Below, in pieces: positions 8,135 to 63,221 of a stretch of 64,000 bases of DNA; positions within the stretch are counted from its first letter, which is position 1; the number at the start of each line of letters is the position of its first letter. The stretch is from a virus: the IMG/VR virus record IMGVR_UViG_3300045988_067909. One strand, given 5' to 3'. Under the pieces are notes generated by a model, which did not search any database, had not been told where the DNA came from, and worked only from the letters and a program-made list of their open reading frames with translations. Both the position numbers and the translations under genes were made by a program.

Positions 8135-10228
8135 TTATCTTAAGAATAGTACCGCTTTAAGATAGTCCAATGTATATTTCAACGTAGACCCTTTGATGCG
8201 AATGACTTTATCATTAAATTTAGTTGTGCTATAGTACTTAGTAAAGTTAAAGTTAGTTTCTTTATTAAGTATATACACCATACACTTAGTATAGTCATTC
8301 AAGATTCTAGCTCTTGTATCAATTAGCTTCTTATCTTTATGACCTTTGTTTAGCATAGACTCAATACATATATTCATATACCATAGTTTAGCTGATTCGA
8401 ATTTAACACCATCCATATTACCAGCTGTCATATAGATTACCAATAAACGATGTGTCTTAAAGAACTCATCATCAAAGTTAATCTTTTCTGGCTTAGTAAT
8501 TAATAGATCACCATAGTTATTAAACTCTATAGGGATATCTTTAGCTTCATTAATAGCAGATTCACGTAAGATTCTATCAATCACTTTCTGTTTAGCTACA
8601 GATTGTAAACGTTTCTTATAAGCTATACTATCTGACGGTAAGAACTTGGTTGTTGGTACACCTAAAGCTAATAGCTTCTCTGTAGCACTAGTAAGTTCTT
8701 CTTCACTTTCAGAAGTTCTCCATTGCTTAATGGTTTTATTAACCATAGTAAACCATTTATTGAACGCTAAACGTTTACTACGATTAGAACTGATATCGAT
8801 ACCTTGCCAGATATCTTTATATGCATCTAGCCAAGCAAGCATATCTACACAATCAGTATCAGTACTATGCTTCCTAGTGTATTCTTTTAGCTTACTTTCA
8901 ATCTCTTCTGGTGTAAAGAATGGTACACCTGCTGGTAATACTGGATCTTGTATTTGATTACCCCAAACATCTGTAGCTTCTATTAGAGTGATATCTTGAT
9001 ACTTAAGTTCCATTGTATTTAGAAGATGAGACTTCATAAAGTTATAGAACGTTTCATTAGTACAACCAACTAACTCTAATAGTTTCCAGTCAGACATTTG
9101 TTGTAATTGAATAGGCATACCCTTATATAAAGACCATAGTTCTTCTAAAGATACTATAGACTTACATAGGTTCATAATATAGATACCTGTATTTAAAGAC
9201 CATTCTTTAGCAGAATGAAGTTCTCTACCCTTATTAGCAAGATTGATACCAAACATATTTGCTCTATTAAGAATAGCACTATTCTTTAATTGTACTTCTT
9301 CATCACTGATGTCAGCTTCAGCATCTTCTTTGATAGATATATTGTCATATTTAATAGGCTGATTCAAGAACTGTTTCTTTAATTCTTCATATCTATCTGA
9401 ATTGGTTTTACCAAATAGACGAATAGATACATCATCAGAGAAGCGTTGTTGGTCATTAGTTAAACCATAGAAAATATCCATCTGTGCATCTAATTCTTTC
9501 TCAGATTCTGGTGTAGCCAATACAAATGAATTAGGGTCACAGTTTAAGAATGCTTCTTTAGTATAGTTATCACAGTTGCTACATGGTGTATCAGATAATA
9601 CATTATCAGTTAACAATACATCATTCAAATCAATAGCTGAATCAGTACGATTCATAGTCTTTACATTAATAGCAAAGTATCCATCATTATCTGTCATTAC
9701 ATCGATATCAGGATGATCTCTAACTATCTCTTTGGCTTTATTCTTTTCTAATTCACCTATTAATGGCATATAGTCATCAGGTAACTTAGAGAAGTCTATC
9801 TCAGCCATTTCTGCTTCTTGCTCTAGAGTAGCAATAACAGAAGACATTTCAACCAATGCTTTATCTGGTTCAAATGTAATCTCTTCAAAGTCTTTATTGT
9901 ATTTGATTTGGTCATGAGAGATTAGTTCCATACCAGTCAATTGTTCATAGAAGTTATTAGCTTCTAGTTTACGTTTATCTTCACCTTTGAAACGGTATAA
10001 GTTAAACTTACGGTCTTTTAAGAAATCTGATTTCTTATATTCTTTTGTACCATCAGAAGACTTTACTTTAATAGTATCATCTTCTAAGTCTTTGGTTAAA
10101 CCATAACCCTCTACTGATTCATCACCAGTAAAAGAGTTACTGTAACCATATTGTACTACGATTTGATCACTAGCATTAGCTGGTGGAACTCCACCAACGT
10201 TAGCAGTGAACTCTTTTAGATTAGACAT
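8135..10228 (-). CDS. Hypothetical large protein (697 aa)
   Basis: AAAGGAGA SD. The start overlaps the upstream stop (TAATG). Lies near the terminase, so a portal role is possible, but no motif supports it. Confidence 0.6.
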   Translation of the reverse strand: MSNLKEFTANVGGVPPANASDQIVVQYGYSNSFTGDESVEGYGLTKDLEDDTIKVKSSDGTKEYKKSDFLKDRKFNLYRFKGEDKRKLEANNFYEQLTGMELISHDQIKYNKDFEEITFEPDKALVEMSSVIATLEQEAEMAEIDFSKLPDDYMPLIGELEKNKAKEIVRDHPDIDVMTDNDGYFAINVKTMNRTDSAIDLNDVLLTDNVLSDTPCSNCDNYTKEAFLNCDPNSFVLATPESEKELDAQMDIFYGLTNDQQRFSDDVSIRLFGKTNSDRYEELKKQFLNQPIKYDNISIKEDAEADISDEEVQLKNSAILNRANMFGINLANKGRELHSAKEWSLNTGIYIMNLCKSIVSLEELWSLYKGMPIQLQQMSDWKLLELVGCTNETFYNFMKSHLLNTMELKYQDITLIEATDVWGNQIQDPVLPAGVPFFTPEEIESKLKEYTRKHSTDTDCVDMLAWLDAYKDIWQGIDISSNRSKRLAFNKWFTMVNKTIKQWRTSESEEELTSATEKLLALGVPTTKFLPSDSIAYKKRLQSVAKQKVIDRILRESAINEAKDIPIEFNNYGDLLITKPEKINFDDEFFKTHRLLVIYMTAGNMDGVKFESAKLWYMNICIESMLNKGHKDKKLIDTRARILNDYTKCMVYILNKETNFNFTKYYSTTKFNDKVIRIKGSTLKYTLDYLKAVLFLR

Positions 10229-11043
10229 TAATCTTCTCCTTTAAGTTCCTTGATGGCATTCTCACACCATGAAGTGAATTCATTAATATTGAAAGTCTTA
10301 GTATTATCATTATCCTCTAACTTGAAACGTAGTTCCATGAATATAGCTAATAGCTGTGCAAAGTTATTATCAGTAAGACGAATATAGTTATACTTGTCTA
10401 GAGTGATAATATTAAACTCTTTGGCTTTTTGTTTAGCTCTATACTCAGGCATGCTTCTTGTGTTAGGATGATCACCTCCATCTTTGACTTCGATTATGAG
10501 GTTATATGGTATATAATATATATCCGTAATCCAATTTCGTGTAACACCATTTTGGTCTACATATTGGATAGTTGGACCAGGCATCATAATATCATCACTA
10601 GGGATATGTAGAACTTTATCCATGAACTCAATAGCACGTTTCTCATATGTACCAGTATAAGTAAACATAGTACCATCAGAATATTTGTAAGTACCAGATA
10701 TACGTCTATTGGCTAACATCTTTTCTTGGTGCTCTGGATCATGCATGAATGTATATCTCCCATATACTTTATGCATATTCTCTAAAGCACGTTTACGCAT
10801 TTCTTTCTTACACTTCTCACTACAATACTTATTATATCTCCAAGTCTTTTCATTCCATTGTGTTTCATTCTTACAGATAACACAAGTTCCTTTAGACTTT
10901 TTATTAATTGTATTGAATACAATTCTAGCTGCAGAGTAACCCTCAGGGATTAGTTCTTGGTGTTTATTTTGTATATGTCTTACCAATGGTTCACGTTCTA
11001 GACGTTTCTCACAGAAAGGACATTTGAATCTTTTCGTTGCCAT
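10228..11043 (-). CDS. Zinc-finger protein with C-terminal PD-(D/E)xK (DUF559/Vsr-like) nuclease domain
   Basis: N-terminal 'CPFCEKRL...HIQNKH' C2H2-like finger plus 'CVICKNE...CSEKCKK'. C-terminal 'DIYYIPYNLIIEVKDGGDHPN' matches the D...(I/L)IEV(D/K)G core. Confidence 0.45.
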   Translation of the reverse strand: MATKRFKCPFCEKRLEREPLVRHIQNKHQELIPEGYSAARIVFNTINKKSKGTCVICKNETQWNEKTWRYNKYCSEKCKKEMRKRALENMHKVYGRYTFMHDPEHQEKMLANRRISGTYKYSDGTMFTYTGTYEKRAIEFMDKVLHIPSDDIMMPGPTIQYVDQNGVTRNWITDIYYIPYNLIIEVKDGGDHPNTRSMPEYRAKQKAKEFNIITLDKYNYIRLTDNNFAQLLAIFMELRFKLEDNDNTKTFNINEFTSWCENAIKELKGED

Positions 11044-11140
11044 ATGTACCTCCTTTAGGGCAGTTTACATGTATGTTTTCACAGGGCTAACTTTATAATA
11101 AGATGCTTAAAGCTACCCAAATAAGCCGAAAGGAGGCATT

Positions 11141-11542
11141 ATGGATACTAATAAATATAAGACATCATCTAAGATTAAAGAATATGCTTTATCGGTAGAT
11201 TCATTTAATAAACCAACAGAATATACTAATGCTAGAGCTATAGCTGTAGATATTATTAGACTATTCTTATTAGAACCTGGTACATTACAAAACAATCCAG
11301 ACTGTGGTATTGGTTTGTATAGTAGATATAAGTTTATAAATAGTGATAGACTACATGAACTAGAAGATACTGCCAAGAATCAAATACAAACATATCTTGC
11401 TCCTATGTCTTCTATTACAGTAGACTGCTCATTTATCAACGTAAATGTATTACTTATTAGAATGACTATTGACACATCTTCTGTCAATCTAGTTTTTAAT
11501 AAGGATAACCTTACTTTAAAAGATATTTCCAATTATAATTAA
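11141..11542 (+). CDS. Hypothetical protein (133 aa)
   Basis: 'gaaaggaggcattATG'. First gene of the + block. Confidence 0.5.
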   Translation: MDTNKYKTSSKIKEYALSVDSFNKPTEYTNARAIAVDIIRLFLLEPGTLQNNPDCGIGLYSRYKFINSDRLHELEDTAKNQIQTYLAPMSSITVDCSFINVNVLLIRMTIDTSSVNLVFNKDNLTLKDISNYN

Positions 11543-11555
11543 GGAGGACTATTAG

Positions 11556-13310
11556 ATGGAAAAGAAAACTCTTTCCTTATCTGATTTGCAAGCTGAAGCT
11601 AATGTATCTGCAGAAGAAAATAATGCTGTAGAAACACCAGCTGAAGATACACCTGTAACGCCACAACCTGTAGAAGAGGAAGCACCTAAAAGTATTCGTG
11701 ATAATCCACTATACAACTTAGGCAATCCTACAGAAGATGCTATCAAAGAAGTAGCAATCGAAGATGTAGCTAAGTATGAAAATGAAAACTTTGCTGAAAA
11801 AGAATACGAAAAGAAAATGAATGACTTCGATGAACAAACTCGTCGAGCATTCCAACGTCGTTTCGGTCCAGCTATCGAAGAAGTTCAACGTATGGCTGAT
11901 GAATACGAAGAACGTAAAGAAATCGAAGGTGGAGATGTACGTGTAGTTTCTACTTATGATAAGAATGCTGAAGTAAATCCTGATGAAGCTCTTACTAAAG
12001 AAGAAATCGAAGAACGTAATGCTATTGCTTTAGCAGAAGCACGTAAGAAATCTCCAGCTAAGAAAGTTGAAACTAAAACAGTAGAAACTCCGACTACAGT
12101 TAAAGAAGAAACTGTAGATGATATTGAAGCTGAACTATTAGACCAACCTACAGTACCAGAACAAACTGTAGTTGATCCAGAAGATGATGATAAAGAATTA
12201 GATATCATTGATGATGATATTATTAATGACTTAGGTCTAGCAGATGAAATGCGTGAAATTGAAGAAAAAGAACGTGAAGAACGATTAAACAAACGTATGT
12301 CTACGTTCAAAGATCAATTACGTACTATGCTAGTTCCTAATAAAGCAAAAACTGATTTATCTAAATTCAAGATTCTTAAATCTACTATGCCAGCAAGTAA
12401 TATCTTAAGTAAACAAGCTGAAGAAACTCCATATTACACTTGGGTATTACCTTATACCGGTATTTCTGTATCTGTTTCTCCATTGTCCGCTATTGAAATC
12501 CAAAACTTAATTAATACAGAAGAAGGACGTAATAACGTTGAAGCTGCACGTGCTCAATTCGAATTGATTTGGAAACACTTGCATCCTAAATGTAATGCTG
12601 GGTCTTTTGAAAACTGGTGTAAGAAAATTCACTATGCTGATATTGACCACTTATACTTCGCTGTATATAAAGCATGCTTCCAAAATGCTAATATCATTGG
12701 CTTCCAATGTCAAAATACTAAATGTGATAATATCTTTGCAGAAAAACGTGAAATCATGGAAATGGTTAAATTCGGTTCTGATAAAGATAAAGAGCTATTC
12801 GATAAGCTTTACCAAAAAGACCCATCTGTAGATTGCACTTTAGAAGAAGACTTAATGGAAGTCTCTGATAAATATGCTATTGGTGTAGGCCCTATCACAT
12901 TATACAATATCCTATTTGAAATTAACTTCGTAGATAAAGCTATGACTGAAAAGTATGATACTTTCGTTGGTATGGCCGCTACTATTAAATCCTTATATCG
13001 TATTGATGAAGAAAAAGAAGCATTGATTCCTATCGCTTTCCGTACAGATAAGAATGATGTAGTTAAGACATACAAATATCGTATTGCTTCTCTATACAAA
13101 ATCTTCAATACTTTAAGTGATATTGACTTAAACGATATCAGTGATCGTATTGGTGAGTATGCTGATAGATATGCTGATTCCATTGATATTTCTTACCAAA
13201 TGCCAGCGGCTACATGTCCTGAATGTGGTGATGAAATCCAAGCTGCTGAGGCTCCAGCTCAACAATTGGTTTTTATACGACATCGGCTAGTACAAGTTTT
13301 GAACTCCTAG
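11556..13310 (+). CDS. Abundant protein with ~290-aa acidic low-complexity N-terminal region and Cys-containing C-terminal domain
   Basis: TAAGGAGG SD, strong codon bias. C-terminal 'CPECGDE' and 'FQCQNTKCDN' suggest a zinc ribbon. Confidence 0.65.
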   Translation: MEKKTLSLSDLQAEANVSAEENNAVETPAEDTPVTPQPVEEEAPKSIRDNPLYNLGNPTEDAIKEVAIEDVAKYENENFAEKEYEKKMNDFDEQTRRAFQRRFGPAIEEVQRMADEYEERKEIEGGDVRVVSTYDKNAEVNPDEALTKEEIEERNAIALAEARKKSPAKKVETKTVETPTTVKEETVDDIEAELLDQPTVPEQTVVDPEDDDKELDIIDDDIINDLGLADEMREIEEKEREERLNKRMSTFKDQLRTMLVPNKAKTDLSKFKILKSTMPASNILSKQAEETPYYTWVLPYTGISVSVSPLSAIEIQNLINTEEGRNNVEAARAQFELIWKHLHPKCNAGSFENWCKKIHYADIDHLYFAVYKACFQNANIIGFQCQNTKCDNIFAEKREIMEMVKFGSDKDKELFDKLYQKDPSVDCTLEEDLMEVSDKYAIGVGPITLYNILFEINFVDKAMTEKYDTFVGMAATIKSLYRIDEEKEALIPIAFRTDKNDVVKTYKYRIASLYKIFNTLSDIDLNDISDRIGEYADRYADSIDISYQMPAATCPECGDEIQAAEAPAQQLVFIRHRLVQVLNS

Positions 13311-13357
13311 ACCAAGTCAATAGGCTATCTTATGAGTATCGTGGGCGAATAACTATC

Positions 13358-13630
13358 ATGGAGATTATGAATGCTCCTGTATGGTATATGGTAGCCCTAC
13401 GATACTTTAAATACCAAGAACGTGTAACTGCTAAAAAGAAACAAAAAGAAGATGATATTAAAGCCAAAGCTAAAAAGCAAAGCTTTAATAAGAATAAATA
13501 CACTGGTAGACAGTTACTAGAGATGGATATAGCCAGAGAAAATGGTCACCATATCCCTGGTTTCGAAGGATTAACTAGAGACGAAGCTGATGATCTTAAT
13601 GAACAAATGATGGAAGAAGGTCTCATCTAA
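13358..13630 (+). CDS. Small basic/acidic protein (90 aa) translationally coupled to the radical-SAM gene
   Basis: Its stop overlaps the next gene's start (ATCTAATG). The frame stays open upstream back into the 3' end of the preceding gene. Confidence 0.45.
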   Translation: MEIMNAPVWYMVALRYFKYQERVTAKKKQKEDDIKAKAKKQSFNKNKYTGRQLLEMDIARENGHHIPGFEGLTRDEADDLNEQMMEEGLI

Positions 13631-14694
13631 TGTATACTATACCTAAGAAAGCAATTAATACTTTAGATGATTTTACTCTATCAAACTTAGAATTGATTCT
13701 AAATAAAGACTGTAATATGGCTTGTAGTTATTGCTTCTTATATGGTGATACAAATAGTGGTGAAAGATTCTCCAGATGGGATGACTTATTAGAGATGCTT
13801 AAGAATATAAATATATCTGAAACATTATCTGTTGGGCTAGACTCTGGAGAATTATTTACCCCTGATAGATTACCATTAGTTATGAAAGCTATGAGAGTCT
13901 TAAAAAAAATTACTAGGTATAAAAACACTACAATAGATTGGTGTACTTATAGTAATGGTACTAACTTCGAGCCTATAAGAGATTTCTTAATAGCAACTCA
14001 GGGTGAGAATAGAACCATTAGTGTATCATATGATGGCGAAGATTCATATAGAAGACTTAAGAACAATAAACCATCTAATACATTAGACACTCTTAAGAGA
14101 TTAAGTGAATCTGGATTTGCTAATGATATCATTATCAGATATGCTATTACAGAGAAAGTGTATAATATGAAAGAGACTTTCGATGCTCTATACAAATTAG
14201 GATATAAGAATATTGAATACTATTTTATACGTAATTATAATTCTTATACCATTCCACTAGTTGTGGATACTTTTAGAAAGAGTCTTACTGATACACTTAA
14301 CTATGTAAAAGATACTGATATTGATTTGTATAATCTACATGATTACTATAGCAATCAAAATCCAACCGTTATTTGTAACTATGGTAATATGCTCACTATA
14401 ACACCTAACGGTAAAATGAGTACTTGCTGTGCAGTCTATGAGGGTATCTATGCTGATAATGTAGAAGCTGATCTATTAGAGTATAATCGTATACCTGAAC
14501 TATATAACTCTTTCGAAGCTAACTATATCTATGATAGGTCTAAAAGTGAATGTGCAGTATGTACAAATCAAATGTGTAAAGAATGCTGTTCATATAAAGC
14601 TATTGGAAGAGATAAATATTATAATAAGAGACACCATCAACAGTGTCATATTAGGCATGCTGAACTAGCTGTCTATGATTCTATTTTTAATTGA
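13630..14694 (+). CDS. Radical SAM enzyme with C-terminal SPASM/twitch-like Cys cluster
   Basis: 'CNMACSYCF' (CxxxCxxC) at residues 29-36. 'ITPNGKMSTCC' resembles the SPASM start 'v.pdGdvypC'. 'CAVCTNQMCKECC' Cys cluster. 354 aa, a size typical of anSME-like maturases. Confidence 0.75.
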   Translation: MYTIPKKAINTLDDFTLSNLELILNKDCNMACSYCFLYGDTNSGERFSRWDDLLEMLKNINISETLSVGLDSGELFTPDRLPLVMKAMRVLKKITRYKNTTIDWCTYSNGTNFEPIRDFLIATQGENRTISVSYDGEDSYRRLKNNKPSNTLDTLKRLSESGFANDIIIRYAITEKVYNMKETFDALYKLGYKNIEYYFIRNYNSYTIPLVVDTFRKSLTDTLNYVKDTDIDLYNLHDYYSNQNPTVICNYGNMLTITPNGKMSTCCAVYEGIYADNVEADLLEYNRIPELYNSFEANYIYDRSKSECAVCTNQMCKECCSYKAIGRDKYYNKRHHQQCHIRHAELAVYDSIFN

Positions 14695-14711
14695 TATTTT
14701 CGGAGACATAA

Positions 14712-15035
14712 ATGGACTTACTAGAGTTTTCATCTAAATTTATTATGGGAGAAACAGATGCATTATCTACATTTTGTCGTCTATTTACCGAGAATAATAT
14801 CTTATACTTTATGCTAGCACCATATGGATGTCTTGGTAATAAAATTGTCAAGTCTGACTTATGTGAAGATAGTGTAGCAGTTACTATATTTGGTAATAAA
14901 TCAAATATTAATGCGTTTAAAAGCATTGAAACAGATTACAATGGGAAGGTAATAAATCGCCATAACACGAATATTGCAATTTCCTGTGTATGTCATAAGC
15001 CAACTGAAATACAAATGGTTTTCAGTAGAGTTTAG
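14712..15035 (+). CDS. Hypothetical Cys-containing protein (107 aa)
   Basis: 'cggagacataaATG'. Immediately downstream of the radical-SAM gene. Confidence 0.4.
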   Translation: MDLLEFSSKFIMGETDALSTFCRLFTENNILYFMLAPYGCLGNKIVKSDLCEDSVAVTIFGNKSNINAFKSIETDYNGKVINRHNTNIAISCVCHKPTEIQMVFSRV

Positions 15036-15110
15036 ATGTGTAAATTCCCATAGTCCACATATAGGACTATGGGATTTCTACATATTAATAACTACGGAGG
15101 TTATAAAAAT

Positions 15111-16790
15111 ATGGCAGATAAACTTAGAGGAGATCATTTAGAGGTCTCTTTATTAGATATGGATGACTTCGTAAAGAAGAATAATCTACAACCTATAACG
15201 AATCCTATATTTTTTGATGTGAATGGTAATCCAACTGATGATGGATTACTATCTAATATCATCTTTGGTATTACTAAGCAAACACGTGCTGGTACTTTTG
15301 CTTATATTGATTTACATGGTAGATTCTTAGCACCATTGGTATACAAGATCTGGGGTAAGATTGATCGTAAACTAAAAGAAATTGTTAAAGGTACTAAGTT
15401 CTTTAAAATAGATTCGGATGGTCAATTTGTTGAAGATGAGAATGGTGAAACTGGTTTAGACTTCTTATATAAGAATATAGACAAGGTTAAGTTTAGAGAG
15501 ACTGGTTCTACTAAACGTAGTCGTTTTATTAAGTTCTTAGAACGTAACCGTAAGAACTTCTTCATTACTAAACTATTAATCATTCCACCATACTATCGTG
15601 ACGTTAAAAGTGATGGTGGTAAAGTCTCAGTTGGTGATATTAATAAGCTATACCAAAACGTATTAGTATCAGCTAAGTCTTTAGAAGAATCTAAATACTA
15701 TGGTATTAATATCGGTGATGCTAATAAGGGACGTATACAAGACTTACTATTAGAAATCTATAACTGGTTTGGCTCTGGTACAGAGTCTAATCCTAATGGT
15801 GGTATTCCTGGTAAGTTTGGTGTATTACGTCGTACTAATATTAGTAAGACTACAGACTATGCTACACGTTTAGTTATGTCTTCTCCAAATCTTAAAGTTG
15901 AAAATCTTGAAGATATCGAAGCTAACTTAGAATACTCAGTATTACCAATGACTTCAGCTGCAGCTAACTTCTTCCCATTTGTATTATTCCATATGAGAAG
16001 ATTCTTTGAAGAGCAATTTGCTGGACGTACAGTATACGAATGTATTGGTTCCAAGGGTGAAGTCTTATATCCTAGAATAGATGATTGGCAAACGTATTTC
16101 AATGATCTAGTTCTTAAGAAAGAGTTAGACCGTTTCATTCATGGTTATTCTGATAGATTTAGACCAATAGAAGCACCTATTAGTTCTAAAGAGATGGAAC
16201 GTATTGGTTATAAGGGTAAAACTTTATACATGAAATTTAAAGCACGTTTTAAACGAGTTGAAGATATTGCTGAAGATAAAGATTCTGGTGTAGCAAAAGA
16301 GCTTCAACGTAAACTAACTTGGTGTGATGTAATCTTTATGGCTGCTACAGAAGCTATAAAAGATAAAATGATTCTTATATCACGTTTCCCTATAGATACA
16401 TTCTATAACCAGTTCTCTACTAAATGTAAATTATCATCTACTATTGAAACTGAAAGTATAGAATTTGATGGTAAGTTCTATAAGAACTATCCTAAGATTC
16501 GTGATGAATACATTGGCACTAATACTGCAAATAAGTTTATTGATACAATGAATATCTGTAATGCTTATTTGGAATCTATTGGTGGTGACTATGATGGTGA
16601 TATGGTAACCATCAAAGGCATATTCACAGATGAAGCTAACGCTGAACTTAAAAAGCAACTAGAGTCTAATGTCCATTTTATTGACTTAGGTTGTAAAGCA
16701 GTAATAGCTAATACTAACGAATGTATCCAAGCATTGTTCTCTTTAACTATGACATTAGATGGGGATGTACTTACTGACCCTAAATTTTAA
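15111..16790 (+). CDS. Multisubunit RNA polymerase beta-prime-like subunit, N-terminal half (catalytic DxDGD)
   Basis: 'YIDLHGRFLAPLVYKIW' (beta' 'RMGHIELAAPVAHIWF'). 'LIIPPYYRDVKSDGG..INKLYQNV' (beta' 'LPPDLRPLVPLDGGRF..LNDLYRRV'). 'IGGDYDGDMVT' (NADFDGDQM). ATG at 15111 with a GGAGGT SD; the ORF track starts 42 nt earlier. Confidence 0.8.
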   Translation: MADKLRGDHLEVSLLDMDDFVKKNNLQPITNPIFFDVNGNPTDDGLLSNIIFGITKQTRAGTFAYIDLHGRFLAPLVYKIWGKIDRKLKEIVKGTKFFKIDSDGQFVEDENGETGLDFLYKNIDKVKFRETGSTKRSRFIKFLERNRKNFFITKLLIIPPYYRDVKSDGGKVSVGDINKLYQNVLVSAKSLEESKYYGINIGDANKGRIQDLLLEIYNWFGSGTESNPNGGIPGKFGVLRRTNISKTTDYATRLVMSSPNLKVENLEDIEANLEYSVLPMTSAAANFFPFVLFHMRRFFEEQFAGRTVYECIGSKGEVLYPRIDDWQTYFNDLVLKKELDRFIHGYSDRFRPIEAPISSKEMERIGYKGKTLYMKFKARFKRVEDIAEDKDSGVAKELQRKLTWCDVIFMAATEAIKDKMILISRFPIDTFYNQFSTKCKLSSTIETESIEFDGKFYKNYPKIRDEYIGTNTANKFIDTMNICNAYLESIGGDYDGDMVTIKGIFTDEANAELKKQLESNVHFIDLGCKAVIANTNECIQALFSLTMTLDGDVLTDPKF

Positions 16791-16800
16791 CAAAAGAAAT

Positions 16801-16827
16801 CCCAGTATAGTCAATGACTATACTGGG
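16801..16827. terminator. Bidirectional terminator hairpin 'cccagtatagtc-aat-gactatactggg'
   Basis: 12-bp perfect stem between convergent genes. T-tract 'tatattttac' on the + side. Confidence 0.55.
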
Positions 16828-16833
16828 TATATT

Positions 16834-17193
16834 TTACATTCTTTTACGTTTATTGCCATTGAGTAATCCATTAATTTGTGTAATAGTAGTCTTCTGTACA
16901 TTAATAGCTTTGAAGTATTCTTTATTGATTTCTTCAAACTCTTTACTTCTAGGGTCTAGTATATTCATAAAATTACGGAATAACCCAACAAACGTCACTT
17001 TTGCAGAATATCGTTGGTTTTTAAACCAAGCAGATGTTTTAGCTGATTGATATACATTCATAAGATATTCAAGTTTTTCAAACTTATTATCTTGGCAAGC
17101 TTTCCATCCCTCATTTATAGTCTGAGCATATTCAAACTTGCCACAGTCTGCAATGAAATATATCAAATCGTCTATTCTAGATAAATTTGCCAT
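16834..17193 (-). CDS. Hypothetical protein (119 aa)
   Basis: Balanced amino-acid composition. The overlapping + ORF is hydrophobic junk. Confidence 0.5.
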   Translation of the reverse strand: MANLSRIDDLIYFIADCGKFEYAQTINEGWKACQDNKFEKLEYLMNVYQSAKTSAWFKNQRYSAKVTFVGLFRNFMNILDPRSKEFEEINKEYFKAINVQKTTITQINGLLNGNKRKRM

Positions 17194-17208: not shown

Positions 17209-19272
17209 TTAAATAGTTATAATATTAGTATAGTTTACATTTTCCTTTTCGAATCTAGTTATACCAATAGACTCTAATGGGAAGTTCTTGATATTGGTAT
17301 TGATGATTTCAAAATAATCAGCATAGTCTAATACCCAGCTTGGTAAGTGTTCATCTGCTGGTACTGCAACGGCAAGTATCTCTCCCTTATACGTTGCTCT
17401 ATTATTATCAAAGAACTTAATAAGTCTTTCATATACCGCAGGATTAGACTGCTGTAATTCACCAATGTTTTTCTCTCTAATATTAACTTTAAGTATCTCT
17501 AAATAGTTTCTGCTATCTAAATCTATTGGTTCAGTACCCTCATCACGAATAGCTTCATTATACGCAATAGCTGCTTTAATACCTTGTATTCTCATAGGGT
17601 CTGCATATGAAGATATAGATTTTACAGATACTGGTTTGTAATAGTCTTTCTCTCCAGACTTGATACTATCATGGATATTTTTTTCAATCTTAGCTAGTAA
17701 ACCAATAACTTCTAATTGGTCTACTTCAGGTTTAAGTAATACTTTCTCTCTAAGTATTCCTTGAAGCTCATCTTTAATACTGTCTTTAAATACAGACTTA
17801 TTGATAGGAAGACCTTTAATATCCATTTGCTTATTCTTAGGTACTATATTACCCTCTTGAAGCTCTTGGATTGTAGCGTAGTTCTTCTTAGCTGGTGTAA
17901 GTAATGCACGTTTAAATAAGAACTCATTCTTCATGTCAATAAGACATACCTTGTATGGTGTCAAAGTATTATACTGCTCAGCAATAAGATGGAAATGAGA
18001 TTTAAGAATCTTACTTACGATATAGCATAAGATATTTACACTGGAAATGCGTACTGCATCATAACCCTCGGTAATCTTAGTCTCTTCTTCCACTTCTTCG
18101 ATTTCATCAGTATAGAAGTTGTATAACTCTTTTCTCTCTTTAGTTACAACTTCCTTGAGGTCATTGACTAATGTACAATCATGGTCTACTAAGATATTAT
18201 CTACAAGATGAATCCATTTATCTGTACTAATTACAGAAGAATCTGTATCTGTAAGTAATACGATATCCCTAGTCATAGTAGAGCATCTTTCAAACTTATC
18301 AGATACAATGTATCTCATATAACACCATTCCATAAATATAGTTGTAAGTTTATTTAGACTTTCAACTATATTCTCTGGTGGTTCATTAGGGTTCATAAAT
18401 GGTTCATTAATACCACTAAAGATATTCTTAATTAAGTCTTGTACGTGAGATGAATCAACTACAAGTCTATATAAGTTATTCTTATAGTATATCTTATTAA
18501 GTACTTCTTGAGATTGATACATCAAGATATTCCAAATGATATCACTATACTTACTGAAATGCTCTTCTGTATCATTAACCCATACGCCACAAGACTCTAT
18601 AACTTTCTTATAGACTTCTTCTATAGGTATATCTCTAGACAACTCTAGTTCTCTACTATAGATATGAGATGGTTCTTTAATAATCCTATTCAAGAATACT
18701 ACAGCTTCATCTATATTCTGGAACTTAAGATTATTAGTGAAGATTTGTTCAAATAAACTAATAGCATGAGTAATAAGCATACGACCTGTAGCTGTAGTCC
18801 CTACTGCAACGTATAAGTTATATGATGCTGATGCTGGTGAACCAATATCACCATATGTAGCATTACCATCACGTTTAGCTAATAGCTGTAATAGATTATA
18901 CTTATTAAATTCATCTGAACCCTTAGGGAATTCAAACATCTTCTTCTTATAAGCTTTACGTTTAGTTACATAAGACTCTAATAGTCTGTAGAATGGTGTA
19001 AACCCCTCTTCGTGTTGTTTAAACAAACACCCATTAGGAACTAAGATAGGTTTATCTGTCTCTATCTTATTAACTAAATCAGTTAACTGTAAGTCAACTA
19101 CAATATCTTTATAGTTATTATCTATACGTACATCTGGATTATTAAACTTCCGTTCAATAGCATCTTCAATGAAGAACTGTATTTCATCTATAGTCAATGT
19201 CGGGAACTGCATACGTAATAACGTAGTCATTTCCTCTTTGTATTTCTTAATCACATTCAAATCTAGTTTCAT
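17209..19272 (-). CDS. Family-B DNA polymerase, polymerase-domain (C-terminal) fragment
   Basis: Motif B 'KRDGNATYG' (Kx3NSxYG). Motif C 'VLLTDTDSSV' (YGDTDS). No DxxSLYPS motif A and no exonuclease motifs. AGGAGGT SD. Confidence 0.65.
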   Translation of the reverse strand: MKLDLNVIKKYKEEMTTLLRMQFPTLTIDEIQFFIEDAIERKFNNPDVRIDNNYKDIVVDLQLTDLVNKIETDKPILVPNGCLFKQHEEGFTPFYRLLESYVTKRKAYKKKMFEFPKGSDEFNKYNLLQLLAKRDGNATYGDIGSPASASYNLYVAVGTTATGRMLITHAISLFEQIFTNNLKFQNIDEAVVFLNRIIKEPSHIYSRELELSRDIPIEEVYKKVIESCGVWVNDTEEHFSKYSDIIWNILMYQSQEVLNKIYYKNNLYRLVVDSSHVQDLIKNIFSGINEPFMNPNEPPENIVESLNKLTTIFMEWCYMRYIVSDKFERCSTMTRDIVLLTDTDSSVISTDKWIHLVDNILVDHDCTLVNDLKEVVTKERKELYNFYTDEIEEVEEETKITEGYDAVRISSVNILCYIVSKILKSHFHLIAEQYNTLTPYKVCLIDMKNEFLFKRALLTPAKKNYATIQELQEGNIVPKNKQMDIKGLPINKSVFKDSIKDELQGILREKVLLKPEVDQLEVIGLLAKIEKNIHDSIKSGEKDYYKPVSVKSISSYADPMRIQGIKAAIAYNEAIRDEGTEPIDLDSRNYLEILKVNIREKNIGELQQSNPAVYERLIKFFDNNRATYKGEILAVAVPADEHLPSWVLDYADYFEIINTNIKNFPLESIGITRFEKENVNYTNIITI

Positions 19273-20016: not shown

Positions 20017-22143
20017 ATGAATAACCTAGCTAATTACGGTATCTATGCTGACTATGTCTTAGGTAAAGATATAGTCATAGACGTAGAAAAAATTAATATA
20101 TATAATTGGGAATCTCACTACCAAAGCATTCTAAATATCCTGAAAGATATGATTGAATCTGAATTAGTGAGAACTAAAAAGATTGGTGTACGGATTGGTG
20201 GTAAAGTTATTAAACTCACATTCGCACACTATATGATTAATATGATCTTCTGGAATATCATCGTTAAAGTCGGTGATACTATTAAACCAGAACACTTATT
20301 CTTCGATAACTGTATTCCTGGTAGAGCTATCGAAAGCTATATTAATAAACTTATCATTGGTCCATATAGAGAAATTATTCCATTGAAGACTTTGAATCAA
20401 GCTATTGCTGATATGATATTCAATATTAGTTTCGTGGACCAATTTGCACCATTCTTCGTTAATAGTGTAAACTTACATGACGAAGTTATGATGCTTAAGA
20501 ATATTCCTGAATATAGAAACCTTATCTATCCTAACTTAGATGAGGTAACTTTATCTGAATCTAAGTCTTATGGTAATAAGTTAATTGATAAGATTCAGGA
20601 TTATGTAAAGAACTCTAAGAAGTATATTGGATATGACCATATCTATGCTAATGCTTTTAGAGCAAAAGAAACTATCAACCTTAAACAGTTGAGAGAGTTT
20701 ATGGGATTCATTGGCGCTAAGCCAGATGGTGAGGGTGGTGTATATCCATACATTATCTCCAATAGCTTTATTACTGGTGGTGTAAATAATAATGTATCCT
20801 ATTTCATTGAATCTGCTGGTGGACGTATTGCCCAAATCTTAGCTAAAGATAACGTTGGTGATGCAGGTTACTTTGCACGTCTTCTTGGTCTATTAGCTCA
20901 AGAAAGTTATCTCCATGAAGATAAGAACTTCAAATGTGATACTCAAAACTTAATACCTATTACGTTTGATAATAAAGTCTTCTTCGATAAGTATATAGAC
21001 AGATGGTGTCGTCTAGAGCCTAATGGTTTTGATGTACTTATTACTGAAGATAGTTGGAAAGACCTCAAGGGTAAAACTGTATATCTATATAGTCCAGCTA
21101 CATGTGCATCTGCTGTACATGGTCATGGTATTTGCTATCGTTGTTATGGTAAGTTAGCTCATACTAATAATAATATCAATATCGGTAAATTCGCTGCAGA
21201 ACTTATCAGTAGAGAGTTTACTCAAGTACTATTATCAGCTAAGCATCTTCTTGAAGTTAAGCTTCAAACTATTGAATGGCCTGCTAAGTTCCAAAAGTAC
21301 TTTACTATCTTTGATAACCGTATTCTTCCTAAAGAAGAAGTAGATTTATCTAAAGTCAAGATTCGTATCTATAAAGATAGTATCTCTGAAGATACTACAG
21401 ATGAAGAATACGATTCTATCCGTGAAGAACGTGAAGATACTGATATCTTAAATGAATATATCGATAAGTTCATGATCATCGATGAAGATGGCGGTGAAGA
21501 AATCGATATAGACCATGTATCCAAGTTCTATCTTGGTGATATCTTTGGTAGAATGGTTAACTCTAGTATTCCTGATGATGATAGTGAGTATTTCGATGTA
21601 CGATTACATGTGGCTAAGAAGAATGCTAAACCATTATTGAATGAAGAAACTCCATTATTCTTTATGCGTATTCAAAATAACGAATTAGCTAAAACAATGG
21701 AACAAGCTCAACGTATTATCAATATTGCAAGTATAACTCCTAAGTTTACATTACCTGAAATCATTACTAAGTTTAACGCTACCATCATCGAGGGTGGTCT
21801 TAATGTAATGAGTGTACATACTGAAGTTATCATTGCTAACTTAGTTAGAGCGGCTGATGATATTATGGGTAAACCTGATTGGTCTTATCCTGAAGCCAAG
21901 TATCAATTACTTGCATTAAGCACAGCATTGAGAGAAAATCCATCATTGATTATCTCTTTAGCTTATGAACGTATTAAAGATACATTGAAGAACCCTAATA
22001 CATTCTTAAAAGAAACCCCATCTTCTATAGATTACTATTACATGCTTAATCCTCAAGAGTTCTTAAACCAAGAAGCTAGAGACTTGTCTATAGATGATAC
22101 TAAGAAAGAAGTCAAGAGCATGTTTGTTAAAGTTGAAGACTAA
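20017..22143 (+). CDS. Multisubunit RNA polymerase beta-prime-like subunit, C-terminal half
   Basis: 'CYRCYGKLAHTNNNINIGKFAAELISREFTQVLLSAKH' aligns to beta' '[35 protein letters not shown]'. AAGGAGG SD. Confidence 0.8.
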   Translation: MNNLANYGIYADYVLGKDIVIDVEKINIYNWESHYQSILNILKDMIESELVRTKKIGVRIGGKVIKLTFAHYMINMIFWNIIVKVGDTIKPEHLFFDNCIPGRAIESYINKLIIGPYREIIPLKTLNQAIADMIFNISFVDQFAPFFVNSVNLHDEVMMLKNIPEYRNLIYPNLDEVTLSESKSYGNKLIDKIQDYVKNSKKYIGYDHIYANAFRAKETINLKQLREFMGFIGAKPDGEGGVYPYIISNSFITGGVNNNVSYFIESAGGRIAQILAKDNVGDAGYFARLLGLLAQESYLHEDKNFKCDTQNLIPITFDNKVFFDKYIDRWCRLEPNGFDVLITEDSWKDLKGKTVYLYSPATCASAVHGHGICYRCYGKLAHTNNNINIGKFAAELISREFTQVLLSAKHLLEVKLQTIEWPAKFQKYFTIFDNRILPKEEVDLSKVKIRIYKDSISEDTTDEEYDSIREEREDTDILNEYIDKFMIIDEDGGEEIDIDHVSKFYLGDIFGRMVNSSIPDDDSEYFDVRLHVAKKNAKPLLNEETPLFFMRIQNNELAKTMEQAQRIINIASITPKFTLPEIITKFNATIIEGGLNVMSVHTEVIIANLVRAADDIMGKPDWSYPEAKYQLLALSTALRENPSLIISLAYERIKDTLKNPNTFLKETPSSIDYYYMLNPQEFLNQEARDLSIDDTKKEVKSMFVKVED

Positions 22144-22200: not shown

Positions 22201-23781
22201 ATGAGAGCTATAATACGAAATACCTGTATAGTAGTTACTGATTATACTCCAGGTAAAGTACCTGGGTTAGAAAAGTACTTTACTATCTTCGATCCTTTGA
22301 CTCATACATATAAATACGTAGGAGTTAGGTTTGACGAAGAGAAGAAACTTATGTATCTCCCTAGAGGGGTTGATACAGGATTTATAGCTAGAACTTTAGG
22401 TGTAGAAATGGAACGTGAGTACAATAGTGATCCATATGAGCAGACTACTATGACCACTATTAAGTATATGCCTAGAGATGATGTACAAAAAGAGGCTTTA
22501 AGATTCATTCTAGCTAAGGGTGAATACATGGCCAATAGTAATAGGACACAGTTATCGGTAAACTTAAATACTGGTGCTGGTAAAACCTATGTAACTATAG
22601 CAGCTATGGCATATTGGAATATAAAGATATGCGTAATTGCCTCAAATAAGGCATGGTTAGAACAGTGGCAAAACTGTGTAGCAGAATATACCAATACCGA
22701 CATTAGGGAGGTACTGATAATCACTGGTGCAGCTGCTATACACAAGATTCTTAAAGGATTTACCGACCTATCTAAGTATAAAGCATTCATGGTAACTCAT
22801 TCTACACTAAAGAACTTTGGTGAACGATTTGGATGGGATTCTATAGGTGAACTATTCAAGAAGCTTAATGTATATATGAAAGTATTCGATGAAGCACATC
22901 TTAACTTTGAGAATATTGCTAGTATAGACTATGCTACAAATACAAAGAAGACTTTATATCTTACAGCTACACCTATACGGAGTAATAGTGATGAGAATAC
23001 TATCTATAAACTATACTTTAAGAATGTACCTAAGATAGACTTGTTTGATGCTGATAATGATCCACATACAAGATACCATGCTATACTGTATAATAGCAGA
23101 CCGACTCCACAGATGAGAGCTAACTGTTATAATTACATGTATGGCTTAGACCGTAATAAATATATGAACTCATTAGTCAATACTGAAGAGTTTAGAAAGA
23201 TTATGCTTGTTATGATGGATAAGATTCTTCGTATAGGCGGTAAAGTCTTAGTATATATTGGGACTAACCAAGCTATTGAAGAGATTAAAGTCTGGATAGA
23301 AGAGAACTATCCAGAGTATCGTGGTGATGTGGGTATATTTACATCCACATATACACAAGCAGAGAAGCAAGTTGCACTATCTAAGACTATCATTCTCTCT
23401 ACAACTAAGTCAGCTGGCGCTGCTTTAGATATACGTGGTCTTAAGGCTACATTTGTATTAAATGAACCATTTAAGTCTGAAGTATTAGCTAGACAAACCC
23501 TAGGCAGAACTAGAAATGATGATACTGACTATATTGAGTTTGTAGATACAGGATTTACATCTACTAGACAGTATTATAGAGCTAAGAAACCTATATTTAA
23601 GAAATATGCTTCAGATTGTAAAGAAATCCAACTAGATTTCAATACATTGAATAATAAAGCTGAAGAACTTGAGTTAATTCGTGAGAATGTAAAAGCTCAA
23701 TATGAAGCAAAACGTATGTTTATAGACTATCGAGATACATTCGATATAAATAGCGTATATAAGAAAGATAAAGACAAATAA
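22201..23781 (+). CDS. SF2 DEAH-box helicase
   Basis: Walker A 'NTGAGKTY'. Motif II 'FDEAH'. Motif III 'LTATP'. Motif VI 'QTLGRTRN'. Confidence 0.75.
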   Translation: MRAIIRNTCIVVTDYTPGKVPGLEKYFTIFDPLTHTYKYVGVRFDEEKKLMYLPRGVDTGFIARTLGVEMEREYNSDPYEQTTMTTIKYMPRDDVQKEALRFILAKGEYMANSNRTQLSVNLNTGAGKTYVTIAAMAYWNIKICVIASNKAWLEQWQNCVAEYTNTDIREVLIITGAAAIHKILKGFTDLSKYKAFMVTHSTLKNFGERFGWDSIGELFKKLNVYMKVFDEAHLNFENIASIDYATNTKKTLYLTATPIRSNSDENTIYKLYFKNVPKIDLFDADNDPHTRYHAILYNSRPTPQMRANCYNYMYGLDRNKYMNSLVNTEEFRKIMLVMMDKILRIGGKVLVYIGTNQAIEEIKVWIEENYPEYRGDVGIFTSTYTQAEKQVALSKTIILSTTKSAGAALDIRGLKATFVLNEPFKSEVLARQTLGRTRNDDTDYIEFVDTGFTSTRQYYRAKKPIFKKYASDCKEIQLDFNTLNNKAEELELIRENVKAQYEAKRMFIDYRDTFDINSVYKKDKDK

Positions 23782-62807: not shown

Positions 62808-63221
62808 TTAGGCATTTCCACAATACTTACAATGCACAGAGTTTCTTAGTTTACGTAAACATGTATTACATATCGGAGTAGAGAATCCTTTAGGTGGAGA
62901 TGATTGTGTTTTACCACAGATGATACAAGTAAATGGTAAACGTTCTGCTTTAGCTAATCGCTCTAGACAGCTATCACAAAACATTAGTTTCATATCACGT
63001 ACATCACGTTGGTCTATCTTATGACATGCTTGACATTCAAAATCCCAATATTGTACATACCCTGGGTCTTCATTATCAAACTTACATGTTTCCCAAATAC
63101 ATCTACCATTATTATTTAAGTATACACAAGTTTTTCTTTCACATTTCTCAAACTGTTCATAAGGGGGTTGTGTATCACCCTTTAGTTTGTTTTCTTCTGA
63201 TTGACCGCTACCAAAACTCAT
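62808..63221 (-). CDS. Cys-rich multi-zinc-ribbon protein (137 aa)
   Basis: At least five CxxC pairs ('CQACH', 'CDSC', 'CIICG', 'CNTC', 'CKYCG'). Confidence 0.5.
   Translation of the reverse strand: MSFGSGQSEENKLKGDTQPPYEQFEKCERKTCVYLNNNGRCIWETCKFDNEDPGYVQYWDFECQACHKIDQRDVRDMKLMFCDSCLERLAKAERLPFTCIICGKTQSSPPKGFSTPICNTCLRKLRNSVHCKYCGNA

Follow-up and report, generated by a model that had tools for sequence, protein, structure and literature searches.

What is the substrate of a radical S-adenosylmethionine (radical-SAM) enzyme that is encoded by a phage between two short genes, one of which overlaps its start codon? The question is raised by a locus in the IMG/VR virus record IMGVR_UViG_3300045988_067909, from which we analysed a stretch of 64 kb (the window), about a quarter of a genome of ~260 kb. 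The locus encodes a small protein (p90), a radical-SAM enzyme with a SPASM domain, and a protein of 107 amino acids (p107). To our knowledge, radical-SAM/SPASM maturases are known almost entirely from bacterial pathways for cofactors and for peptides that are ribosomally synthesised and then modified post-translationally (RiPPs). An earlier note on this DNA had seen a RiPP-like layout of precursor and maturase, with p90 as the possible precursor and p107 as an alternative target. A real radical-SAM/SPASM enzyme in a conserved trio is indeed present, but p90 lacks the marks of a precursor. We favour, with a probability of about 0.4, a reading in which the three genes form an accessory operon and the enzyme would cross-link p107 through a cysteine thioether; that the substrate is a protein or peptide of some kind we regard as probable.

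Results

A divergent radical-SAM/SPASM enzyme without a recognition domain

The middle gene of the trio almost certainly encodes a radical-SAM/SPASM enzyme, as judged from sequence profiles and a predicted fold. The CNMACSYC motif reported near its N-terminus is present, and the Pfam model Radical_SAM (PF04055) is matched with 29.8 bits against a cut-off of 29.5. The best NCBIfam match is the PapB ranthipeptide maturase (NF047865), over residues 17-321 and with 47.5 bits against a cut-off of 340, and PHROG 1802 ('radical SAM domain-containing protein') is matched at E 5e-19. Weak matches were obtained to MoaA (27 bits), viperin (19 bits) and the QhpD model TIGR03906 (E 0.013, 14 bits against a cut-off of 453); the SCIFF maturase model TIGR03974 gave no match at E <= 1 and the anaerobic sulfatase maturase model TIGR03942 none. 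A role in defence or anti-defence was rejected, PADLOC having returned only weak viperin-core matches for the enzyme.

The C-terminal part contains nine cysteines (C249, C266, C267, C308, C311, C316, C319, C320 and C339), arranged as C249-x11-G261-x4-C266 ... C308-x2-C311-x4-C316-x2-C319 ... C339, with inner spacings of x4 and x2 as compared to x5 and x3 in the motif definition CX9-15GX4C - gap - CX2CX5CX3C - gap - C. The search with SPASM hidden Markov models that had been proposed for this gene stayed under threshold for both models: TIGR04085 scored 15.8 bits against a cut-off of 27 (E 0.014, residues 249-339), and PF13186 was not reported in the Pfam search. The domain is too divergent for the curated models, but is recognised through a family profile and the modelled fold.

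When 1.84 billion cluster representatives were searched exhaustively with HMMER, only 91 relatives were found at E <= 1e-3; an alignment of 49 sequences served as the basis for the conservation analysis, the AlphaFold2 model and the profile searches. Residues C32, C35, G73, N109, D135, C249, C266, C316, C319 and C339 are invariant among the 49 members, C28 (96%), C311 and G261 nearly so, and E74, which forms a GGE-type motif with G73, occurs in at least 90%; the window enzyme keeps every family-invariant residue. The family signature in the SPASM region reads C-x11-13-G-x4-C, then C-x2-4-C-x4-C-x2-C, then C, and all seven cysteines are kept across the members, the middle block beginning with a cysteine at either 306 or 308. 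All 49 members match the PapB model (best E 2e-57) and 38 match TIGR03906, and most match models of SCIFF, QhpD or CXXX-repeat maturases.

When the family profile was compared with the sequences in the PDB, CteB was by far the best match (128 bits, E 3e-36), followed by the uncharacterised 8vpo (71 bits) and anSME (69 bits), and the alignment to CteB spans from just past its RiPP recognition element (RRE) through the whole SPASM domain. The AlphaFold2 model has a barrel fold, with a predicted local distance difference test score (pLDDT) of 89.2 and a predicted template-modelling (TM) score of 0.90; a model based on a four-sequence alignment (pLDDT 39) was discarded in its favour. Foldseek likewise placed CteB first among PDB structures (E 3e-14, TM ~0.7), ahead of anSME (E 3.5e-12), ChlB, SuiB, SkfB, BlsE and EpeE. 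With PapB, CteB and anSME as the best matches rather than NrdG or QueE, and with the C-terminal cysteines aligned to those of the CteB SPASM domain, the assignment to the peptide- or protein-modifying type made in the earlier note holds, as does its description of the C-terminal cluster.

In CteB, PapB and Tte1186 three cysteines bind auxiliary cluster 1 and four bind auxiliary cluster 2, and the substrate cysteine coordinates the open iron of auxiliary cluster 1 (PMC10177961). The profile alignment to CteB places the cysteines of the window enzyme in such a way that this 3+4 scheme is reproduced, with C249, C266 and C319 as predicted ligands of auxiliary cluster 1 and C308, C311, C316 and C339 as those of auxiliary cluster 2. 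No extra cysteine upstream of C249 is found in the enzyme in the family alignment. The radical-SAM motif begins already at residue 28, which shows that the enzyme has no RRE. The gene is under purifying selection, with a ratio of nonsynonymous to synonymous substitution rates (dN/dS) of 0.12-0.14.

Among close relatives, the segment 14380-14439 (residues ~251-270, in the SPASM β-hairpin between C249 and C266) is the most variable of the enzyme gene, with a nucleotide diversity (π) of 0.24 and several amino-acid changes.

p107 and the three-gene unit

The trio is kept as a unit in every close relative with enough sequence, which supports the grouping of the three genes in the earlier note. The order of proteins of 87-90, 353-354 and 107 amino acids recurs in L001, L004, L011, L012 and L014, the enzyme of L004 being reduced to 330 amino acids by an internal deletion, and the same order is found in L002 and L015, both of which are cut inside the upstream open reading frame (ORF). 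The close relatives of the trio are found on metagenomic contigs of 257-269 kb. All three genes are under purifying selection (dN/dS 0.12-0.26), and their variation is biased towards third codon positions. The synteny comparison suggested at the outset also showed that the cultured relatives SA1 and LPJP1 have no radical-SAM gene upstream of their RNA polymerase β′ gene, which identifies the trio as a clade-specific accessory module. One assembly, L019 (NCBI GCA_015473185.1, BNJV01000613.1), from which P0145 and P0146 come, is ridden with frameshifts and was set aside; P0146, a fusion of the p90 C-terminus with the N-terminus of the enzyme, is an artefact of those frameshifts.

The gene for p107 starts 17 nt past the stop codon of the enzyme gene and has its own GGAG Shine-Dalgarno sequence. 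The protein, Cys-containing as the earlier note had stated, has five conserved cysteines and is 92-99% identical in relatives, with the ORF intact in all nine sequences, and its homologs are confined to the clade of the trio, on contigs of 257-262 kb. It adjoins the enzyme gene wherever the contig reaches upstream (L011, L012, L014, L015); L013 and L016 begin just upstream of p107. Against L004 its dN/dS is 0.17, and variable sites are distributed over the three codon positions as 9/5/18. This third-position bias and that of p90 (below), together with the dN/dS values, indicate that both small ORFs are real genes. No match for p107 was found in Pfam, NCBIfam, PHROG or the PDB, and for this reason a function as a ferredoxin-like electron donor was rejected.

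Three lines of evidence point to a cysteine-thioether chemistry: the CteB-type open auxiliary cluster 1, the affinities of the enzyme to PapB, SCIFF and QhpD maturases, and the cysteine-tailed proteins encoded beside more distant members of the family (below). Given such a chemistry, p90, being free of cysteine, cannot be the substrate, and we infer that p107 is the most plausible local candidate, more so than p90; its standing as a target, already considered in the earlier note, is weakened by the lack of a homolog in the cassettes of distant members. In the mechanism that we envisage, the radical-SAM cluster would cleave SAM to yield a 5'-deoxyadenosyl radical, which would abstract a hydrogen from a carbon of the bound protein substrate; the resulting carbon radical would then be captured by a substrate cysteine thiolate sitting on the open iron of auxiliary cluster 1. 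The product would be an intramolecular thioether cross-link with a loss of 2 Da per link. With the cysteine-bearing p107 as the target, the system would be closer to the stapling of QhpC by QhpD than to a classical RiPP with leader and core.

Table 1. Features of the locus and its surroundings; positions refer to the window, except those of the CQ-tailed proteins, which refer to the contigs named.
Feature	Position	Strand	Remarks
Large terminase gene	1813-4116	-	
Endonuclease gene	10228-11043	-	phrog_15137 at 2e-43; weaker HNH/homing-endonuclease PHROG matches
p584	11556-13310		584-aa protein; directly upstream of trio
p90	13358-13630	+	probably 87 aa (start ATG 13367); 90 aa if ATG 13358 is used
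Junction inverted repeat	13623-13670	+	13-nt arms 13623-13635 / 13658-13670, 92% complementary; encloses p90 stop and enzyme AUG
Radical-SAM/SPASM enzyme (predicted)	13630-14694	+	354 aa; without N-terminal RRE domain
CxxxCxxC motif CNMACSYC	13711-13734	+	C28, C32, C35 (residues 28-35)
SPASM domain (predicted)	14374-14646	+	residues 249-339
p107	14712-15035	+	107 aa; Cys at 22, 40, 51, 92, 94
Strong hairpin	15043-15077	+	AATTCCCATAGTCC / GGACTATGGGATTT; between p107 and RNA polymerase gene
RNA polymerase β′ gene	15111 (likely start ATG)		GGAGG Shine-Dalgarno; 559 aa; longest ORF from 15069, inside hairpin
DNA polymerase B gene	17209-19272	-	
Second RNA polymerase subunit gene	20017-22143		
Helicase gene	22201-23781		
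CQ-tailed proteins	L005 5521-6120; L007 5620-6273; L008 5476-6108; L009 9357-9935; L017 2060-3040; L018 4366-4944		

RNA features of the unit

The stop codon of p90 overlaps the ATG of the enzyme gene in a TAATG at 13628-13632, as had been noted. Start/stop overlaps occur in 6 of the 40 same-strand gene pairs of the window, and thus the overlap alone is weak evidence of a functional link. It lies, however, within an inverted repeat that folds at -17.2 kcal/mol, with a modest z-score of -2.5, and whose core arms ATCTAATGTAT / ATACTTTAGATGA are the same in the seven relatives covering the junction, except for L002 (ATACCTTAGATGA, a T-to-C change in the 3' arm). This is likely to be a translational-coupling hairpin: it holds the AUG of the enzyme gene in its stem, which fits a real coupling. 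The coupling claimed in the earlier note is in keeping with the hairpin; the overlap by itself is of a common kind here.

A second and stronger hairpin follows p107. It folds at -29.6 kcal/mol (z -5.6), none of 200 shuffled sequences reaching this stability, and is identical in eight of nine sequences, the exception being L004, where the loop (CACATATC) and one position of the 3' arm (GGACTATGGGACTT) differ. With this stem-loop, which appears to be terminator-like or regulatory, the three-gene unit is closed.

Around this hairpin, nucleotide diversity among nine relatives drops at ~14970-15210 (core 14969-15208) to a π of 0.003-0.011, compared to 0.06-0.24 in the enzyme gene. The wider conserved block, 14700-15300, reaches from p107 across the spacer into the RNA polymerase β′ gene, of which it takes in the first ~100 nt, with a second trough at 14729-14788, and against L001 and L002 the synonymous divergence (dS) of p107 is 0.015 versus 0.4-0.8 in the enzyme gene. 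The stretch 14900-15220, which includes the strong hairpin, folds far better than shuffled controls (z -6.3) and has no Rfam match. The block at 14970-15210 could be either a structured RNA under selection, perhaps a leader or terminator of the RNA polymerase gene, or a recent recombination tract.

Distant relatives in multi-enzyme cassettes

The enzyme belongs to a phage-specific and unnamed family. Family contigs of known size are mostly 97-258 kb long, i.e. jumbo-phage sized. No relative lies between 79% and 44% identity to the window enzyme, and the next ones (P0004, P0005 and P0006, 39-44% identity) are found on contigs of 97-235 kb which also bear an RNA polymerase β′ gene, within tandem arrays of four or five radical-SAM genes. 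Such cassettes (L005, L007, L008, L009, L017 and L018) contain 4-7 radical-SAM paralogs in tandem, from at least four clades: L009 has four on a 256-kb contig, L017 also four, and L018 seven in 15 kb (on a 14.9-kb contig). Those cassette contigs that are known to be long (97-256 kb) have the size of jumbo phages. Conserved helical proteins of 320-570 amino acids are encoded between the radical-SAM genes, and tail-fibre-like proteins adjoin.

The first and largest radical-SAM enzyme of the cassettes resembles PapB and SCIFF maturases (the L005 copy scores 216 bits with the PapB model and 150 bits with that of SCIFF maturases), and is followed by a protein of 190-330 amino acids with a C-terminal Cys/Gln repeat, for instance CILSCQVACQATCQLGCQSCQYNTCHNQNCGGWS; the consensus of this CQ tail is CQVxCQxxCQLxCQSCQYNTCHNQNCGGWS. 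The CQ-tailed protein of L005 (199 amino acids) gives a weak match to the SCIFF family of Pfam (E 0.004), and no description of these proteins was found in the literature searched. They would be a recurrent candidate substrate for radical thioether stapling. In addition, L007 and L008 encode proteins of ~400 amino acids with an internal copy of the Cys/Gln repeat.

In a neighbour-joining tree the window enzyme groups with one of the cassette paralogs, 'C', to which it is orthologous (39-44% identity). In L005, L007 and L008 this paralog is overlapped by an upstream gene for a helical protein of 390-400 amino acids. Comparison of this partner with p90 and p584 by hhalign gave a probability of 0.1%, and phmmer --max detected no significant homolog of p90, p107, p584 or p133 in any of the six cassettes.

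Wealth in radical-SAM genes has been described for several phages: Campylobacter phages CP220 and CPt10 have 11-12 of them, with 11 in CP220, and Aeromonas phage 332-Vera has eight within a tail-fibre/structural cluster. This abundance has been termed 'highly unusual' in the literature, without an assigned function, and we found no functional study of phage SPASM enzymes in the literature searched. The statement in the earlier note that the widespread phage radical-SAM enzymes lack SPASM domains was too strong, PHROG 1802 and proteins of Campylobacter, Erwinia and Ralstonia phages being of the SPASM type.

The cassettes raise a different explanation, namely that the substrate is encoded elsewhere and that p90 and p107 are mere accessory neighbours. 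The remote substrate could be a CQ-tailed protein of the virion or tail-fibre type, another phage protein such as p584, or a host protein. Every more distant member examined sits in a cassette of 4-7 radical-SAM genes with a CQ-tailed protein and tail-fibre-like neighbours, and the window enzyme is the ortholog of one particular paralog therein; relatives that lack an RRE, anSME among them, modify separately encoded proteins; just a quarter of the genome is visible; and in other giant phages clusters of several radical-SAM genes lie inside structural gene modules (PMC12390700). However, neither a CQ repeat nor a CxxxC repeat occurs in the six frames of the window or in the flanks of its relatives, no ORF of 40 or more amino acids in the window carries a second CxxxCxxC motif, and the compact, hairpin-bounded trio is intact in all relatives, with the start of the enzyme gene coupled to p90. 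On balance we hold a remote substrate, the main alternative, to be somewhat unlikely.

p90, more likely a partner than a precursor

A GGAG Shine-Dalgarno sequence precedes the second ATG of p90, at which the gene is also called to start in several relatives, hence the shorter protein is the probable one. Its N-terminus is aromatic and conserved (MNAPVWYMVALRYFKYQER) and is joined by a variable linker rich in Lys to an acidic C-terminal part of ~40 amino acids that is invariant; cysteine is absent, as had been stated. Homologs with 66-96% identity are restricted to the phage clade of the trio; dN/dS is 0.12-0.18 and variable sites by codon position are 19/4/38. No match to p90 was found in Pfam, NCBIfam, PHROG, PADLOC or the PDB. 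Comparison with the RRE-type N-terminal domains of the bacterial relatives by hhalign gave a probability of 0.1%, and thus the idea of a stand-alone RRE or PqqD protein is unsupported; it was rejected for p90 and, at the same hhalign probability, for p107, the RRE profile itself being weak (1 of its 11 members matches PqqD).

Seen as a RiPP pair, the locus offers short ORFs on both sides of the enzyme, one of them overlapping it, an enzyme without RRE, a cysteine-free p90 and a p107 without similarity to an RRE. A precursor with a leader and a variable core is not what p90 looks like, given its invariant C-terminal 40 residues, the absence of cysteine and of any family match, and in this respect we depart from the earlier note. 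It might still be modified in its invariant segment by a reaction other than thioether formation, i.e. a C-C or C-O cross-link of the streptide, darobactin or triceptide type, or an epimerisation. His and aromatic residues occur in the segment (…NGHHIPGFEGLTRDEADDL…), and the structural neighbours of the enzyme include the SPASM enzymes SuiB and EpeE. In the contigs recovered, p90 is a constrained coding gene that directly precedes the enzyme gene, with a conserved hairpin that its translation would open. Nevertheless, the nearest relatives of the enzyme (CteB, PapB, SCIFF and QhpD maturases) form thioethers and share its three-Cys auxiliary cluster 1; the enzyme has no RRE with which to read a leader; known precursors do not resemble a protein of 87-90 amino acids with a helical linker rich in Lys; and coupled genes are common in this genome. 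We therefore regard p90 as an improbable substrate and more likely a partner, adaptor or regulator.

Genome neighbourhood

The source appears to be an uncultured gut/oral jumbo phage of ~260 kb, remotely related to the AR9/PBS1/S6-like phages of Firmicutes. Located 3' of the trio is a gene for the N-terminal portion of a split RNA polymerase β′ subunit. With this protein, the counterparts from phages of Staphylococcus (S6, PALS_2, SA1), Listeria (LPJP1) and Bacillus (BpSp, Goe21) share 29-32% identity; we take all of these phages to be AR9/PBS1-like jumbo phages. The start of the gene is most likely ATG 15111 and not 15069, in view of the GGAGG Shine-Dalgarno sequence and the choice of gene callers in the relatives. 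Among 50,697 GenBank phage records there was neither a DNA relative nor, for the enzyme, a close relative at the protein level: megablast with 11000-17000 as the query and tblastn with the enzyme gave nothing at 1e-5 and only marginal matches at E <= 1. The window has a GC content of 33%, no tRNA gene was found across positions 1-64000, and no Rfam family was detected at the gathering threshold in the whole window or at E <= 1 in 13000-16000. Study codes suggest that the samples of the relatives come from human-associated cohorts.

In p584, encoded directly upstream of the trio, the N-terminal third is acidic and rich in Pro, and the C-terminal domain contains eight cysteines, among them CxxxxC and CxxC pairs; the dN/dS of p584 is 0.11, and it has no homolog in GenBank phages or the PDB and no informative PHROG match. 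The endonuclease gene is kept in relatives; its stop codon shares 1 nt with the start of the minus-strand gene that follows (a 697-aa protein), and its N-terminal zinc finger gives a weak, sub-threshold match to the Pfam family zf-Di19. Near the end of the window, at 62808-63221 on the minus strand, a 137-aa ORF with 14 cysteines in CxxC-type pairs resembles multi-zinc-finger proteins; no PHROG matched it, and there is an overlap of 4 nt with the next gene. The RNA polymerase and DNA polymerase genes of L014 look truncated because of two runs of 100 N (11263-11362 and 13740-13839), and real truncation was dismissed.

The position of the enzyme gene amid endonuclease, RNA polymerase subunit, DNA polymerase B and helicase genes, its weak MoaA and viperin matches, the nucleoside decarboxylase BlsE among its structural matches, and the precedent of the phage radical-SAM enzyme M6 gp53, which modifies DNA (PMC8989533), could speak for a non-protein substrate (a nucleotide, DNA base or cofactor), but this is highly improbable, since the MoaA, viperin and BlsE matches cover mainly the shared radical-SAM core and are far below the CteB and PapB scores, M6 gp53 belongs to a different, spore-photoproduct-lyase-like family without SPASM (an identity of the enzyme as such a DNA-hypermodifying protein was rejected), a full two-cluster SPASM domain with CteB-type ligands is typical of peptide and protein maturases, and the cassette context of the family points to protein substrates.

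Discussion

The locus encodes a divergent, RRE-less radical-SAM/SPASM maturase of a phage, with unusual candidate partners. Its closest characterised relatives, CteB (the SCIFF maturase, PDB 5WGG/5WHY), PapB and Tte1186, form cysteine thioethers and use the same 3+4 scheme of cysteine ligands. The window enzyme, encoded by a phage, is only ~15-17% identical to CteB and PapB, and differs from them in that its radical-SAM cysteines start at residue 28, compared to 104 in CteB and 119 in PapB, where an RRE/PqqD-like domain precedes them. A PapB would be recognised by at least 340 bits and an adjacent precursor with CX3D/E repeats, and a SCIFF maturase or sactisynthase by TIGR03974, an N-terminal RRE and an adjacent six-Cys SCIFF precursor; the window enzyme shows neither combination, and no SCIFF-like or CX3D/E-repeat precursor was found near it. 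With anSME (PDB 4K36-39) it shares the absence of an RRE, a similar length and, if we are right, a protein rather than a leader-bearing peptide as the substrate. In anSME, however, auxiliary cluster 1 is fully ligated by cysteine through an extra upstream residue, and the reaction is the oxidation of Cys or Ser to formylglycine. A sulfatase, which as the substrate would carry a C/S-x-P/A-x-R motif, was not seen among the genes annotated near the window enzyme.

A conceptual parallel to the reading that we favour, in which p107 would be stapled, is QhpD of the quinohemoprotein amine dehydrogenase maturation, a radical-SAM/SPASM enzyme that introduces intramolecular thioethers into a small cysteine-containing subunit. 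This subunit, QhpC, carries Cys-to-Asp/Glu cross-links. The parallel is limited by p107 itself, which shows no similarity to anything known. As to the phages rich in radical-SAM genes, the clusters of CP220/CPt10 and 332-Vera and the metagenomic cassettes belong to the same protein family as the window enzyme, but the window has a single radical-SAM gene, no large PapB-like paralog and no CQ-tailed protein; its trio comprises two clade-specific small neighbours in a replication and transcription region, whereas the cassettes adjoin tail-fibre-like genes.

Several observations weigh against thioether formation in p107. Neither p90 nor p107 has homologs in the cassettes that hold the 24-44% identical relatives, which means that enzyme and small proteins are known to co-occur only in a single cluster (50% identity level), and that the step from neighbour to substrate rests on one narrow clade. 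Moreover, p107 looks like a small folded protein and not like a Cys-rich repeat tail, and has no PapA-like CX3D/E repeats. The enzyme scores far under all curated equivalog cut-offs, PapB included, and as the paralogs of the family share only ~25% identity with one another, a divergence of the chemistry is possible. The extra cysteines next to C266 and C319 (C267 and C320) might occupy the site left open on auxiliary cluster 1. The SPASM β-hairpin is the most variable part of the enzyme and p107 is almost invariant, which is not expected of a simple co-evolution of enzyme and substrate. Finally, with 64 kb of ~260 kb in view, a CQ-repeat substrate or further radical-SAM genes could lie elsewhere in the genome.

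A bolder version of the reading with p107 as the substrate can be drawn, which we think unlikely. The trio would then be a self-contained module for protein stapling: a solitary, RRE-less enzyme split off from the cassettes would link the folded p107 by thioethers, p90 would be a co-translated adaptor, and the stapled p107 would serve the transcription or replication of the phage. This last role would rest on a fusion of the p107 gene, at the RNA level, with the hyper-conserved, structured leader of the RNA polymerase β′ gene.

In summary, the locus can be considered as a minimal, one-enzyme version of the wealth of radical-SAM genes in large phages, and offers, with only two candidate partner proteins, a tractable entry point to it. 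If the thioether reading is correct, RRE-independent thioether-forming enzymes would be added to the tools of peptide engineering, and phages would be found to cross-link their own proteins by radical chemistry. Should the trio be in fact a self-contained stapling module, the family would represent a phage-specific class of radical protein cross-linking enzymes, which could explain the abundance of radical-SAM genes in large phages.

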